A stretch of 64,000 bases of DNA from Patescibacteria group bacterium (GTDB taxonomy: Bacteria > Patescibacteriota > Patescibacteriia > Patescibacteriales > UBA12465). The notes under the pieces are model-generated. The model searched no databases, was not told where the DNA came from, and saw only the letters and a list, made by a program, of their open reading frames with translations. The stretch is taken from contig JBAZBP010000001.1 in the NCBI GenBank assembly GCA_041671365.1, positions 453,518-517,517 of the forward strand, written 5' to 3'. Each line of letters opens with the position of its first letter. Positions within the stretch are counted from its first letter, which is position 1. Shown one piece after another: positions 27,120 through 33,049 of the stretch. The translations under genes were made by a program, and so were the position numbers.

Positions 27120-27284
27120 TCAATTGCTATGCCTTCTTATCATTGAGTCAATTTGGCTAGGATCATTTACAACACCTAAAATTTTTTGACAATGACTACA
27201 TAAAATTACCAAAACATTAGCTCCGGATGTGCTTCTCTGTCTTGATATAAGGCTAGTGTCTGCGTTACAATAAGGACAAAACAT
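27120..27284 (-). CDS. possible small zinc-ribbon protein (54 aa)
   Basis: MFCPYCNADT...ILCSHCQKILG contains CxxC...CxxC. It starts 10 nt after the endonuclease stop, co-directional with the operon. Confidence 0.35.
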   Translation of the reverse strand: MFCPYCNADTSLISRQRSTSGANVLVILCSHCQKILGVVNDPSQIDSMIRRHSN

Positions 27285-27294
27285 ATTTTTTATT

Positions 27295-28083
27295 TTAATT
27301 TTTCTTGGTTATAACCTTTTCCTTGATTCTATATTTACCAGATTTAACTAACTTAATACTATTATAATTTTTTTCATCGTCAAATCTAAATTCCCAAATA
27401 GAATAAGAATTCTCCGTAATATCTCTTTCGAAAAATAACGTTATAACTTTTTTATTTGTACAACTCTGCCATTGCCTATACGGATAATAAAGTTGCCTAA
27501 TAATTGTGTTAGAACTCCTCGTGCCCTTTGCTTCAACTAAGACAATTTGTTTTTGTCCTTCATAGCCCGCGTCGACTTCCGTTTGTACTCCGCCAACCTC
27601 TATTTTCTGCTTTCCAACAAAAAAATTAAATTCCGGCGTGTATTTTCTGCCCCTTATGGTCAATACCAGGGTCGGATCCCCCATAAATGTTCTTATAAGA
27701 CTTGAAGCATAGGCAAAATCTAAATGTTGCATTTCGGAATTTCCAATTTCAGAAGAATCTAAATGAAAATCTAATTTAGAATCATATGTTTCAATGTCTT
27801 TAGTTATTTCCGGTATATCAATATAACCTTCTCCTTTGATAATGCTATAGTAACCATTCTTTGTTGGCAAAAGAAAAAGATTATTTTTGCGAAAAACCTC
27901 AGGTCTCGATTCTCTTGAATCTTGTTTGCATAAAATACGAACTTCTTTCTCGGCAGTATTCTTGAATTTTTGACAAGATTTTTTAATTTGAGAAGCTGAA
28001 AGCAAAAACGGCGATTTATTAAAATCGTGTTTTAGAATTTCATAATCATCAAAAATTTTTTTCCAAGATGTACTGTTCGCCAT
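27295..28083 (-). CDS. putative type II restriction endonuclease (PD-(D/E)XK)
   Basis: Lies 4 nt downstream of the methyltransferase. Candidate catalytic motif TEVDAGY...IVLVEAKG (D...E-x-K). Confidence 0.6.
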   Translation of the reverse strand: MANSTSWKKIFDDYEILKHDFNKSPFLLSASQIKKSCQKFKNTAEKEVRILCKQDSRESRPEVFRKNNLFLLPTKNGYYSIIKGEGYIDIPEITKDIETYDSKLDFHLDSSEIGNSEMQHLDFAYASSLIRTFMGDPTLVLTIRGRKYTPEFNFFVGKQKIEVGGVQTEVDAGYEGQKQIVLVEAKGTRSSNTIIRQLYYPYRQWQSCTNKKVITLFFERDITENSYSIWEFRFDDEKNYNSIKLVKSGKYRIKEKVITKKN

Positions 28084-28087
28084 ATAA

Positions 28088-29337: not shown

Positions 29338-29346
29338 ATTATTAAT

Positions 29347-30758
29347 TTAAGTTAAGTTAATATTTTTAATCTCTGATTTAAAACTACCGTCATATATGGT
29401 TACATCCACTATATCCCCATTCTTTATTTGATTTAATTTTTTTACTATCAATCCATGTGACCGAGTTATGCTATAACCAAGCTTAAGCTGTCTTTCTGGA
29501 CTATTTGAATTTAAGATTTTCTCAGAAGAATCAACTTTTTGTTTTGCTTGTCTTATTTCATTTACTATTAATTTACTTGGGCTACTTAAATCAGTTTTAG
29601 TTTTATTTATCTGTAACGAATATTCTATTTGAGTAAATGCTGGTAGTAAAATCATATTTATTTTTCCATAAAATAATCTCAGTCTATCTTCAAAACGCCC
29701 TCTAAATAATACCGGGTACTGATCAATAGCCCTCTTTATTTCTCGTATTCTCATACTAATAGAGGTTGACCATTTTTCTAAAGCTTGTTCAGCTTTTTTA
29801 AAATCATCAAATATTGAACGAAAGCTATCTCTTATGTTTGAATATGAACTATTAACTAAATTTTTTCTATACCATATTTCATTTTGGAATAAATCAAATA
29901 TTTTTTGCTGATATATATATAAATTAGATAAGGCTTTCTCCCAAGGTTCATTCAATATATTGGCTGCGGCCGTAGGAGTAGAAACCATTTTATCAGCGAC
30001 CAAACCCATAAGTGAGACATCTCTTTCGTGCCCAACTCCGACTAAAACGGGGTAAGGGAAATTAGCTATTTCTCTAACTAAAGTTTCGTTATTAAGGGTT
30101 GTAAAGATTCTAGCGACCCACCCCCTCTAATAATCACAAGGATATCAATTTCTTTTTTTGCAAATGTTTTTATTGATCTATAAAGATCTTCAACTGCCAA
30201 CTGTCCTTCAACCCTTGAATCAATCATGCTAATTTGAAAACCTGATTTCCTTAAATTAATCAGAAAATCATCTTTAGCTGCTCCGCTATTGGATGTAATT
30301 AGGCCAATTCTTTTTGGAAAACTAGGAAGTGCCCTTTTCTTCGATAATTCAAATAGCCCTTCCTGTTGTAATTGCGCTTTTAATTTTTCATAGGCCATTT
30401 TTAGAGCCCCTTCACCAACAAGTTCAATTGTCTCTGCATGAAAAGTCAAGCCACCACCAGCTTTATAAATTTCTGGCGATCCATAAATTATTACCTCTAA
30501 TCCATCTCTCAAGATAACCCCGCTCAACTTATACTGTCTTGTCCACATAATACATCTAAGTACGGCATTAACATTTTTATCTTTAATAGAAAAAAATAAA
30601 TAACCCTTTCCCTCTATTATTTTTAATTCCGTTATCTCGCCAATAACTCTAGCGGTAAAATTACGCAAGCCATCGTTTAATGAGTCTATATAATCACTAA
30701 CTGTAATCTCTTTTTTTGTATTTTCTTGCTCATTCATAAATTTTTTAATCGATATCAA
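29347..30758 (-). pseudogene. xseA: exodeoxyribonuclease VII large subunit with a 1-nt frameshift
   Basis: ORF 30078-30758 has the OB-fold N-terminus and ...[13 protein letters not shown], then stops. The -1 frame continues ...[45 protein letters not shown] into ORF 29347-30009. The shift is at the C-run near 30096-30100. Confidence 0.8.
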
Positions 30759-30769
30759 GAAATATCATG

Positions 30770-33049
30770 TTATATTTTTGGTATTTTAATTTTGTCACTA
30801 TCATTTAGCCTAATAATAACTGGCTGTTTTAGTTTTAAAGCTTTACCAACAACAATTGCATGGCGCTCCTCTAAGGTAGATAAGGTATTGGAATAATCAA
30901 GACCAATATAATTTTCTAAAAATTGTTTACCAGTGTCATCAAATACACGCATGGCAAATATAGTATTACATTGATTTAGAATGCTTTTACTAATATTTGC
31001 TGTCCTTTGCGTTATAACAATACTTCCAAGTCCATATTTTCTCCCCTGTAAAATAACCTTAGCGGTTCCGTTAACAGCCGTTTTATCTCCTTCATTAGCT
31101 GTAGAATTCCACTCTGGCACTAATGAATGGGCTTCTTCAAAAATAATTAAAACCTTAGCTTTTTTATTTTCCTCCAGCCCCATGGCCATTAAAATTTTAA
31201 ATATTTCTTCTGATATTATTCTTGTCTTTTCCGCTTGTGTTAATTCAGTTGTTATAACATTAAACCCAACTTTTTCCCCCTTACTAACTTTATGATAGTC
31301 TGGATTATAAATTCTAACCCTATAATCACCAGCAAACTTTTTATTTTGAGGGATGGTATCTTGACTAAAGAAGAAATTATTCAAATCCTTTTCTAATAGC
31401 TCATGATACTGATTATGGTTTCCACTCTTTTCATAGTTAGCGACATCTTGATTTGAGGAATTTTTATCATAATGGATTTTTCCAAAATTACTGTTTAATT
31501 CATCGAGAGAGTGTTCATCGTCAGACTTTATAACTGACCCATCTAAATAATCGGGTAATGCCTTTTTATATTCATTTGTTATATCTAAGCATATAATTTT
31601 AGTCTCAGTGTTTTCTGCTATCTTTTTTATAAGTTCATACGTTAGGCATGATTTACCAATACCTAGAATTCCTAATATTGCGGTATTGTGAGTAACTAAA
31701 GAATCTGGATCTTTTAACAAAATTTCCAAACTTGTTTCTGGAAGCCTGCCAATAGCCATTGGATTTGGACTAATTTCTGCCTTTTTATCGAAAAAAACAG
31801 GAGAATAAATATTTGGCAACCATTTTACGGTTTCTAATTCTTTAAGTTGGTCATTATAACTTCCTAATTTTTGTGCGACGCCCGTTAGATATCCATAAAT
31901 ATTATGCTTCTCCAATTCTTCTTCATTGGTTTTTCCATCAATTATCTGATAGAGTACGTCTTTATTATATATTTCAGTCTTAATAACCGACCCTTCTTTA
32001 AGAAGTCTATAATTAATATTAGCTGTATCAATTAGAGATAGAAATTGTATTTTACTTATATTAGAACCGTCTGCCACATACCCTATAAAATTATCTTTGT
32101 TTTTATAAAGATAATTTTCTTCAATTAGTTTTTTTGACTCTTCTTCGATATTAGTTAAATCCAGAATAAATACAGAATTATTTCTAGAGAAAATAGTCTT
32201 TGACCCACTAACAAACTTATGCCCCTTAAGATCTACCCTCAGAGGTGCCTTTTTCTCTTCTAGTAAGTAAACATAAATCCATTTTTTATTTAATAACTGT
32301 TTTTCATTAACAATTATTCCAACTGCGCCAATAGATTTATCAAGATATAGGTAAACCAATTTACCTTTTTTCGTTTCTTTAGATTTATGTTTTAAAAAAT
32401 CTATTTCAACTTTATATAAAAATGGATTTTCACAGCCGATTGCTTCTCCTAAAATTTCATTATTATTCTTCGAAATTCTCAAAAGATTAGAAAACCAGAT
32501 AATAATATCTTCTACTATATAATTTGTGATAAAAATAATCCAAAATGTAAATAAAAAAGCAAAATCCAATGGTTTGCTTTTAAAATAAGAAAATAAAGTT
32601 GCTATATAGATAACCGAAAATATAACTTTTGATTGTCCAATTTTTACTATAAATTCGTAAAATGTTTTTTCTGTTTTTTCAAATTCAGGAAAGAGCTGAT
32701 ATATAAAAATCAAAATAATAGAAATTAAAACCAACAGGAGACTTGAATAGAATATATACCAATACCCTACAAAATTATTAGGCTGATTAATGCTCAAAAG
32801 TGCTAAAATAACTGCGATTGAATTCGTGAGAACATCCACTGGTTTTGTAAAATATGGTTCCGCCACATAGGTGCCGAAAACTAGCAATAATGCACCTGAG
32901 ACAAAAAGCAAATTATATTCTTTATTTACACCCCATAAAAACTCCCAACCCCCACTAAGATAGTGACAAATTAATAAAAAAATTGTTATATATATCCCCA
33001 CGGCCGATATTCTTTGAACTATGGACAATTTGTTATTTTTTATAGACAT
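30770..33049 (-). CDS. membrane-anchored HerA/FtsK-superfamily (DUF87-like) ATPase
   Basis: About 200 aa of N-terminal TM helices, a central barrel-like region, Walker A THNTAILGILGIGKSCL, Walker B VLIIFEEAHSLVP, and GRKYGLGSIVITQRTANI (HerA-type arginine-finger region). Confidence 0.75.
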   Translation of the reverse strand: MSIKNNKLSIVQRISAVGIYITIFLLICHYLSGGWEFLWGVNKEYNLLFVSGALLLVFGTYVAEPYFTKPVDVLTNSIAVILALLSINQPNNFVGYWYIFYSSLLLVLISIILIFIYQLFPEFEKTEKTFYEFIVKIGQSKVIFSVIYIATLFSYFKSKPLDFAFLFTFWIIFITNYIVEDIIIWFSNLLRISKNNNEILGEAIGCENPFLYKVEIDFLKHKSKETKKGKLVYLYLDKSIGAVGIIVNEKQLLNKKWIYVYLLEEKKAPLRVDLKGHKFVSGSKTIFSRNNSVFILDLTNIEEESKKLIEENYLYKNKDNFIGYVADGSNISKIQFLSLIDTANINYRLLKEGSVIKTEIYNKDVLYQIIDGKTNEEELEKHNIYGYLTGVAQKLGSYNDQLKELETVKWLPNIYSPVFFDKKAEISPNPMAIGRLPETSLEILLKDPDSLVTHNTAILGILGIGKSCLTYELIKKIAENTETKIICLDITNEYKKALPDYLDGSVIKSDDEHSLDELNSNFGKIHYDKNSSNQDVANYEKSGNHNQYHELLEKDLNNFFFSQDTIPQNKKFAGDYRVRIYNPDYHKVSKGEKVGFNVITTELTQAEKTRIISEEIFKILMAMGLEENKKAKVLIIFEEAHSLVPEWNSTANEGDKTAVNGTAKVILQGRKYGLGSIVITQRTANISKSILNQCNTIFAMRVFDDTGKQFLENYIGLDYSNTLSTLEERHAIVVGKALKLKQPVIIRLNDSDKIKIPKI

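Follow-up and report, generated by a model that had tools for sequence, protein, structure and literature searches.

HerA motors drive several anti-phage systems, each of them through a bound effector, and in the solved HerA complexes these partner effectors bind on the N-terminal side. HerA-NurA repair operons include Mre11-Rad50. PrrC, an accessory defense gene in the EcoprrI type I locus, encodes an anticodon nuclease that is soluble and contains an ABC-type ATPase domain. Exonuclease VII (ExoVII) of Escherichia coli has been solved as an XseA4-XseB24 assembly (PMC10835039). The known roles of ExoVII are in repair and in the processing of retron msDNA (multicopy single-stranded DNA); a HerA partner is not among them. 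Here, we analyzed a 64,000-nt stretch of DNA from a Patescibacteria group bacterium (contig JBAZBP010000001.1, positions 453,518 to 517,517; "the window"), in which six tightly packed minus-strand open reading frames (ORFs) at 27120-33049 encode a membrane HerA-type ATPase, the two ExoVII subunits, a methyltransferase, a candidate endonuclease, and a small Cys-rich protein. A sequence-only reading of this DNA had proposed either a HerA-nuclease analogue in which ExoVII replaces NurA or a small defense island. We give slightly better than an even chance to the operon being a modular defense island, composed of three separable units and carried as cargo on an integrative element. The first unit would be a stand-alone, membrane-anchored HerA-type ATPase from a family that normally resides inside or beside restriction-modification (RM) operons; the second, an xseA-xseB pair of the lineage's own type, set among defense-type genes and with xseA inactivated here by a 1-nt deletion; and the third, an intact type II RM pair with the small Cys-rich ORF. 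We favor this arrangement over a HerA-ExoVII machine because about 95% of the genome loci sampled for the ATPase family, as well as the four closest ATPase homologues, lack xseA, because XseAB is found equally beside other defense genes, and because xseA is decaying here.

The 759-aa ATPase matches the Pfam DUF87/HerA family (5e-09; 37 bits versus a cutoff of 23.2) and the PADLOC HerA model (2.7e-32). An AlphaFold2 monomer model built from 50 homologues (pLDDT of 79.6) places approximately eight predicted transmembrane helices in residues 10-193, followed by a beta-rich region (199-440) and a P-loop ATPase domain (445-759). When the model was compared with the PDB by Foldseek, the top 50 matches were all HerA chains (E values of 4e-19 to 2e-14 over 450 to 730 aligned columns), coming from SIR2-HerA, DUF4297-HerA, HerA-NurA, and Sulfolobus HerA (4d2i); none of them was FtsK or VirB4. 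The beta-rich region precedes the ATPase domain, and the structural alignments, which were not resolved to single residues, are long enough to include a HAS barrel. Sequence matches to the PDB and to NCBIfam HerA models cover the C-terminal ATPase domain only, and those to the anti-phage HerA models NF042943 and NF042944 (69.8 and 66.6 bits, below the cutoffs of 850 and 800) are confined to residues 627-752. Walker A (G465-K466-S467), Walker B (E638-E639, with H641), and R670-K671 are invariant in the 50 homologues. As modeled, the ATPase thus combines a HerA-type motor with a fused membrane domain, and the sequence-only description of it as HerA-like and transmembrane holds. PADLOC, one of the checks suggested in the sequence-only reading, returned no complete system for the ATPase, only its generic HerA models and a weak mad8 match.

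Relatives of the ATPase are numerous: an exhaustive HMMER search yielded 371 clusters (50% identity) at an E value of ≤1e-30. The best matches are spread over several phyla, most of the 150 best-scoring ones are 670 to 780 residues long, and hydrophobic N termini or transmembrane helices are also found in divergent members of the family. No relatives were found in IMG/VR, searched with the ATPase alignment, or among INPHARED phages, so there is no indication that phages carry the ATPase; an XseA alignment found no relatives in IMG/VR either.

To see where this family lives, we collected 80 genome loci, called their ORFs with our own script (translation table 11), and clustered the neighbors; the loci were picked through peptide patterns, and the neighbor counts are therefore indicative and not a census. 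The recurrent neighbor clusters, as read from sequence, are type I HsdM/HsdR, type III Mod/Res, type IIG enzymes, recombinases, and XseA. Pfam domains found on 71 immediate neighbors include Eco57I (8), N6_Mtase (6), ResIII (6), N6_N4_Mtase (5), Methylase_S (4), and HsdM_N (3), followed by SIR2_2 with STALD, PDDEXK_1, and HNH_2 (2 each) and by single endonucleases, among them Bpu10I- and PstI-type enzymes. By these counts, the usual partners of the family are RM genes, not ExoVII. In some loci, the ATPase gene is embedded in the RM operon: in two loci of Bacteroidota (L003, 8102-14940, and L004, 568-7543), it is flanked by a Mod-like methylase gene and an ~880-aa gene, with gaps of 4 and 9 nt and of -28 and 4 nt, respectively. 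This ~880-aa gene is a putative type III Res, an assignment made from the sequence without a per-protein Pfam result. On an Arcobacter plasmid (L094, CP146529.1, 1522-14711), the order is hsdS-hsdM-RhuM-hsdS-hypothetical-SLATT-DUF87-"RNA-binding domain" protein-hsdR, and on an Aminobacter plasmid the ATPase gene has an AbiE pair on one side and two reverse transcriptases on the other.

The four closest ATPase homologues that we examined, all metagenomic, are 82, 68, 66, and 60% identical to the window protein and have different surroundings. One context is a methyltransferase with a cupin; in L083, the gene follows an AlwI-type RM system; in L102, DpnI/Dam, Shedu, and a BglII RM system surround it; and in L086, the neighbors are an AAA_15/21 protein and UvrD, a pair that appears Gabija-like. 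None of the four has an adjoining xseA, integrase, or Rep gene. In several members of the family, the gene directly downstream of the ATPase gene encodes a nuclease: an overlapping DUF2779 protein in L002, PDDEXK_1 in L012 and L016, HNH_2 in L028 and L045, and the putative Res in L003 and L004.

The ExoVII genes of the window are present but broken. Three-frame translation revealed a single base missing from xseA at 30093-30096 (ccctt^aat), and inserting one T at this point restores a 463-aa XseA; in tblastn with the repaired protein, residues 1-222 and 222-470 fall in different frames. The N-terminal ORF contains the OB fold (tRNA_anti_2, 55 bits) and positions 1-89 of Exonuc_VII_L, while the C-terminal ORF contains positions 122-314 of the same Pfam model; the two ORFs score 77 and 65 bits with it. 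D157, R204, H237, and D240 are invariant among 20 XseA homologues, and all four are encoded in the window. The break falls between RGGGS, in the upstream ORF, and GHERD, in the downstream ORF; because it separates the Arg of the first motif from the His and Asp of the second, which are invariant positions, a complete active site is impossible in either fragment. Another metagenome contig (L093) matches the window at 100% identity over 1,068 nt, including the deletion, and a one-off assembly error is therefore unlikely. The frameshift noted in the sequence-only reading is thus traced to one nucleotide and recurs in a second contig. From its reading frames and the matching contig, we take xseA to be a real, recent pseudogene, and since it is broken between catalytic residues, a HerA-ExoVII machine cannot work in this copy. 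Programmed frameshifting at the break was also considered and was judged unlikely, as ccc-tta-a contains no slippery X XXY YYZ heptamer.

The xseB product scores below threshold with both Pfam Exonuc_VII_S (21.5 bits versus a gathering score of 24) and TIGR01280 (22 versus 35 bits). An XseB-type ORF directly follows XseA in five other loci and is 52 to 83% identical to XseB of the window; the ORF after the closest XseA (L087) is 83% identical, and those in L089, L091, and L012 are 52 to 64% identical. No second, intact xseAB was found within the 64-kb window. A metagenome scan with XseA returned just the 1-kb contig identical to the window (L093) and no further neighborhoods.

How often, then, do the ATPase and xseA occur together? 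Approached from the ATPase side, only 4 of the 80 genome loci have an xseA gene at a distance of 10 kb or less. Locus L012 encodes, in order, HsdR, an HsdM/S fusion, the ATPase, PDDEXK_1, XseA, and XseB; in L018 (Chitinophagaceae, 1-2502), the ATPase gene is represented by its C-terminal half alone, which is followed by XseA 27 nt downstream; in L005, XseB-XseA is divergent from the ATPase gene; and in L033, XseA lies 3.4 kb away. In L018, a gene for an rve-family transposase is located upstream on the opposite strand, and the ATPase gene there may have been truncated by an insertion sequence. Approached from the XseA side, the sample consists of seven of the closest XseA proteins (48 to 74% identity, all from Patescibacteria). 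Their neighborhoods are as follows: M78 and DUF4411 and then XseAB (L087); tRNA-Gln, DUF87, a serine recombinase, AbiU2, and XseAB, with the ATPase gene and xseA two genes apart (L089); an MZB-domain protein, XseAB, PIF1, PDDEXK_4, and methylases (L091); a type ISP enzyme, DUF87, and XseAB (L097-L100, seven contigs); SNF2, a type ISP enzyme, XseAB, PIF1, PDDEXK_1, and DarTG (L101); AbiU2, XseAB, and a PvuRts1I/SRA enzyme (L103); and a DUF4011 helicase, XseAB, and DUF2779 (L106). Counting the window, defense-type genes surround xseAB in all eight sampled loci, and a membrane DUF87 ATPase is present in three of them.

These neighborhoods bear directly on the idea that the operon encodes a HerA-ExoVII machine, in which the membrane HerA would unwind or thread DNA ends and ExoVII, in the place of NurA, would degrade the single strands, thereby processing foreign DNA cut by the RM enzymes where RecBCD is lacking; the window would then hold a recently decayed copy. 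The adjacency or proximity of the ATPase gene and xseAB in the window, L012, L018, L097-L100, L089, and L005 speaks for it, and the occurrence of such pairs in Patescibacteria, Bacteroidota, and an unclassified bacterium, with divergent ATPases, suggests several independent juxtapositions. Other members of the family have different nucleases in the same downstream position, and the HerAs of solved structure (SIR2-HerA, DUF4297-HerA, and HerA-NurA) work with a bound effector. On the other hand, xseA is rare around the ATPase in the family-wide sample and absent beside its closest homologues; relatives of XseA are found equally beside AbiU2, MZB, type ISP, DUF4011 helicase, and DUF4411 proteins where no ATPase is present; closely related XseAs have different neighbors; and in the window xseA has become a pseudogene while the ATPase and RM genes have remained intact. 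XseA-adjacent ATPases share only 24 to 54% identity with one another, and for the DUF87 ATPases of the XseA-side loci, including the window, the figure is 24 to 29%, compared with 50 to 54% for their XseAs. L097 and L091 have XseAs that share 83% identity, but their upstream genes differ. Because similar XseAs have different upstream genes and the linked ATPases are divergent, the adjacency appears to have arisen repeatedly in a variable region and not to have been inherited as one block.

We therefore consider a dedicated HerA-ExoVII machine unlikely. The sequence-only reading had made its proposal depend on conservation of the adjacency elsewhere, and the outcome is mixed: the pair does recur in at least five other loci, divergently in L005 and two genes apart in L089, but it is infrequent in the family and absent from all four of the nearest relatives. 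The version in which ExoVII stands in for NurA is not borne out, with the pairing optional in the family and xseA broken in this copy. The small-island version fares better, given the type II RM pair and an ATPase family that lives inside RM operons. A softer form of the first idea is that membrane HerA plus ExoVII is an optional DNA-end-processing add-on for RM systems, with a PD-(D/E)XK, HNH, or DUF2779 nuclease in the role of ExoVII elsewhere. Here, the motor would seize the ends of incoming or restricted DNA at the membrane, and the strands would be degraded by ExoVII. We assign this form, too, a low probability; if it were true, it would describe a portable "restriction plus degradation" kit for RecBCD-poor bacteria such as Patescibacteria and would make ExoVII a component of defense islands besides its part in repair.

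Alternatively, xseAB might be the housekeeping copy of the lineage, which was captured, e.g., by imprecise excision next to a tRNA/rpoD-linked site, or borders a defense hotspot, so that its position next to the ATPase gene would have no function. L087 comes from a relative with dnaG-rpoD just upstream, as in the window; its XseA and XseB are the closest to those of the window (74 and 83% identity, respectively), and its RpoD is 82% identical. The best matches of XseA are all from Patescibacteria, in keeping with a lineage gene, while those of the ATPase cross phyla; the upstream neighbors of xseAB vary freely; and xseA is decaying here. However, pure hitchhiking leaves unexplained why the ATPase family recurs beside xseA in Bacteroidota and other phyla and why defense-type genes lie on both sides of xseAB in L091, L101, L103, and L106. 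In addition, XseA is closer to its L087 counterpart than is DnaG (54%), which hints at exchange over strict vertical descent. We regard this explanation as quite unlikely. In L087, we also observed a 33-nt direct repeat (97% identity; 6074-6106 and 7855-7887) that brackets a RhuM gene and hints at a small insert separating hisS from the M78/DUF4411/xseAB genes.

Several observations weigh against the modular island that we prefer. The juxtaposition of the ATPase gene and xseA recurs above the level of chance; XseA is the most common cluster among the ATPase neighbors outside RM genes and recombinases, and the ATPase is also present in two of the seven XseA-anchored loci (L089 and L097-L100). 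Selection for a functional link is an equally good interpretation of the divergence among the XseA-linked ATPases. The tightly coupled downstream gene often encodes a nuclease, so that "HerA plus variable nuclease" would fit better than a purely stand-alone protein. The label "defense-type," as applied to the surroundings of xseAB, reflects Pfam names alone, and no experiment on the ATPase family or published description of it was found in our literature search.

The gene order of the operon agrees with the sequence-only reading: the coordinates of the six codirectional genes and the gaps of 11, 9, 95, 4, and 10 nt between them were reproduced in our ORF list, and the labels HerA-like ATPase, XseA/XseB, methyltransferase, and endonuclease are consistent with the Pfam, PADLOC, and NCBIfam scans. 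Two details need qualification. The 11-nt gap between the ATPase gene and xseA is correct as a distance between ORFs, but the true gap is probably 32 nt, because xseA homologues begin at the ATG at 30737. The terminal ORF that had been called a zinc ribbon does encode 54 aa with four Cys in two CxxC pairs, but its zinc-ribbon match is below threshold (NrdR, 16.6 bits versus a cutoff of 27.2), and no NCBIfam or PADLOC match was found; it is possibly an RM controller. A promoter-like site (29031-29003) lies inside the 95-nt gap, between xseB and the methyltransferase gene; taken as a whole, the promoter scan was not above chance (39 sites versus 36.8 expected), and no terminator-like site was found in any intergenic gap of the six-gene operon.

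In the third unit, the methyltransferase matches Pfam N6_N4_Mtase (2.8e-54) and PADLOC MTase_II (3.1e-90); its CcrM-like score of 209 bits is far under the equivalog cutoff of 830, and avoidance of GANTC, tested for a HinfI/CcrM-like specificity, was not seen in the window (observed/expected ratio of 0.85). The candidate endonuclease matches DUF6996 (8e-22) and DUF6997 (1.9e-51) of Pfam, both at full length, as well as PADLOC REase_II (9.8e-36). Among its plasmid matches, the best 2 of 20 overlap a gene annotated as a DNA adenine methylase, and the other six shown list no methylase. By these model matches and the 4-nt gap between the two genes, the methyltransferase and the candidate endonuclease are an intact type II RM pair, as had been proposed.

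The mobile setting claimed in the sequence-only reading is also well marked (Table 1). An exact 21-bp direct repeat, TTCGAATCCGACCCCGGGAGC, has two matches in the window, with none expected from shuffled sequences. By its two copies, the six-gene operon is entirely inside an integrated element of ~10.3 kb, which carries genes for a tyrosine integrase, an excisionase (Xis)-like helix-turn-helix (HTH) protein, and a Rep protein and ends at the 3' end of a tRNA gene. An exact 16-mer pair, TTGTGACGCTATTGTG, for which no chance occurrence is expected, lies just inside the two ends and may be an arm-binding site of the integrase. The target tRNA gene is interrupted in the anticodon loop by a group I intron of ~555 nt (Rfam RF00028 at 36770-37038, 83.8 bits), within which lies an ORF resembling an HNH homing endonuclease (36953-37279). 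ARAGORN missed this split tRNA; when the intron was removed computationally by group I rules, the product was tRNA-Thr(UGU) or tRNA-Asn(GUU). The chromosomal flanks contain rpoD and dnaG on one side and HD-domain, SDR, and metal resistance genes on the other. An empty attB was not found in a related sample, where the only other contig with the flanking HD gene (L096, a Logan contig) is identical to the window and begins inside the element, 6 nt upstream of the distal 16-mer copy. The att core is absent from all of the loci that we fetched, and no att-like repeats were found around the xseAB islands of L087, L089, L091, and L101.

Two features of the flank beyond the distal end were recorded as well. 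A terminator-like hairpin (26445-26428) lies just beyond the distal att core; as a 33-nt unit, it is duplicated at 88% identity, with one copy at 26413-26445, outside the att site, and the other 2 kb further, at 24336-24368, between the genes for a peptidase S51 and an SDR protein. A metal/arsenic resistance cluster occupies 12423-22683 on the minus strand and encodes a P-type ATPase with HMA domains, a DsbD_2/cupredoxin protein, ArsR, a thioredoxin-like protein, and an ArsP permease.

Table 1. Features of the operon and of the integrated element, in window coordinates
Feature	Position	Strand	Basis or remark
Distal att core	26460..26480	-	Partial copy of tRNA 3' end (T-loop, 3' T-stem, acceptor strand); far end of element
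16-mer TTGTGACGCTATTGTG, distal copy	26605..26620	-	125 bp inside distal end
54-aa Cys-rich ORF	27120..27284	-	10 nt downstream of endonuclease gene
Type II restriction endonuclease candidate, 262 aa	27295..28083	-	Pfam and PADLOC
N6/N4 DNA methyltransferase, 287 aa	28088..28951	-	4-nt gap to endonuclease gene
xseB, ExoVII small subunit, 96 aa	29047..29337	-	Weak Pfam match and homology to XseB of L087
xseA, ExoVII large subunit, frameshifted	29347..30737	-	Three-frame translation; Pfam on halves
Membrane-anchored HerA-type ATPase, 759 aa	30770..33049	-	AlphaFold2 model, Foldseek, Pfam
313-aa ORF, divergent from ATPase gene	33174..34115	+	No Pfam, PADLOC, or NCBIfam match
Rolling-circle-type Rep	34605..35315	+	Pfam REP_ORF2-G2P, 1e-20; weak RepSA match
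Excisionase-like HTH protein	35348..35563	+	Pfam HTH_17, 6.6e-15
Tyrosine integrase	35572..36684	+	Pfam Phage_integrase, 1.4e-31, and SAM-like N-terminal domain
16-mer TTGTGACGCTATTGTG, proximal copy	36613..36628	-	96 bp inside tRNA-proximal end; same orientation as distal copy
Intron-split tRNA gene, integration target	36722..37348	-	3' end (36724-36744) is proximal att core

The gene content of the element raises another explanation for the ATPase. Actinomycete integrative conjugative elements (AICEs) carry int, xis, and rep together with one membrane-bound FtsK-like DNA translocase, and by analogy the membrane HerA-type ATPase could pump element DNA into a recipient, with xseAB and the RM genes as unrelated cargo. 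The integrase, the Xis-like protein, and the weakly RepSA-like Rep do share a 10-kb element with a membrane ATPase of the FtsK-HerA superfamily, and weak signals point in the same direction: a 20-bit match of a VirB4-like NCBIfam model to the ATPase, AAA_10 (PF12846) in some homologues, and TrwB_AAD_bind in the ATPase of L097. However, no FtsK_SpoIIIE or TraG/VirD4 Pfam domain in the ATPase passes the threshold, and the top structural matches are exclusively HerA, which speaks against the affiliation with conjugative or translocase families that the sequence-only reading had left as a possibility. Furthermore, neither an integrase nor a Rep is found near the closest homologues, recombinase clusters are located near only 8 of 51 loci of the family, and residence within RM operons is not expected of a transfer protein. 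A role in transfer thus seems highly improbable.

Returning to the modular island, we can outline how its first unit might act. The ATPase would form a ring-shaped, presumably hexameric double-stranded DNA (dsDNA) translocase held at the membrane, by analogy with other HerA proteins, and the motor would act on free DNA ends, e.g., those of phage DNA that has been injected or cut by restriction, as a backup to restriction. The fused membrane domain would serve as an anchor at the site of DNA entry or as an effector, taking the place of the SIR2, DUF4297, or NurA partners, because it sits N-terminally, on the side where effectors bind other HerAs. In some lineages, a nuclease is encoded directly after the ATPase gene. 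The position inside RM operons, like that of PrrC, suggests a helper or backup role for restriction. Gene content, element boundaries, predicted fold, family neighborhoods, and the frameshift are observed, while the hexamer, its action on DNA ends, the part played by the membrane domain, and any cooperation of the ATPase with the RM enzymes or with ExoVII are inferred.

The wider implications concern the families more than this partly decayed locus. In a family of at least 371 clusters from many phyla, the soluble partner of HerA appears to have been swapped for a membrane domain fused to the motor, and the genes reside in type I, III, IIG, and II RM operons. These features point to a link, not studied so far, between restriction and the membrane or DNA-end processing. 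The recurrence of ExoVII beside the ATPase and the presence of xseAB among defense genes in the sampled Patescibacteria loci suggest a role of ExoVII outside repair. The more valuable leads are the family-level association with RM systems and the residence of xseAB in defense islands of Patescibacteria. Our literature search found no description of a membrane-fused, RM-linked HerA, of ExoVII in defense islands, or of a HerA-ExoVII pairing, in agreement with the sequence-only reading, which knew of no system that joins a transmembrane HerA-like ATPase with ExoVII; the sole link between ExoVII and defense that it returned was the processing of retron msDNA. One further apparent match to ExoVII concerned exonuclease VIII.

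Among described systems, SIR2-HerA (Nezha/Gao19) and DUF4297-HerA are the best structural matches of the ATPase (8wod, 8wiv, 9c1n, and 8ziq). Like them, the ATPase resides in defense islands, has the conserved Walker A, Walker B, and arginine residues, and belongs to a family whose members are sometimes followed by an effector-like gene, with SIR2_2 and STALD found in two neighbors. Unlike them, it has about eight N-terminal membrane helices, for which the matched HerA chains (500 to 696 residues) are too short, and the usual neighbors of its family are RM genes. No SIR2, DUF4297, or NurA domain was found in the scanned ORFs of the locus, where the ATPase gene is flanked by xseA and by the 313-aa ORF that matches no family. 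PrrC offers a parallel of position: members of the ATPase family lie between hsdM/S and hsdR, or between the Mod-like methylase and the putative Res, but no relationship to PrrC in sequence or fold was found.

The ExoVII of the window shares with known ExoVII the OB fold, the catalytic domain, and the long helical C-terminal part, with xseB directly downstream; it differs in being encoded on a mobile element among defense genes and in having its frame broken between the Arg and His motifs. With the HerA-NurA resection complex (9x1m and 4d2i among the structural matches), the locus shares the placement of a HerA-type motor beside a nuclease gene and the notion of a translocase that feeds DNA degradation. 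Here, however, the nuclease is ExoVII, a frameshifted single-stranded DNA (ssDNA) exonuclease unrelated to NurA, the motor is predicted to be anchored in the membrane, and the setting is a mobile defense island instead of a repair operon.

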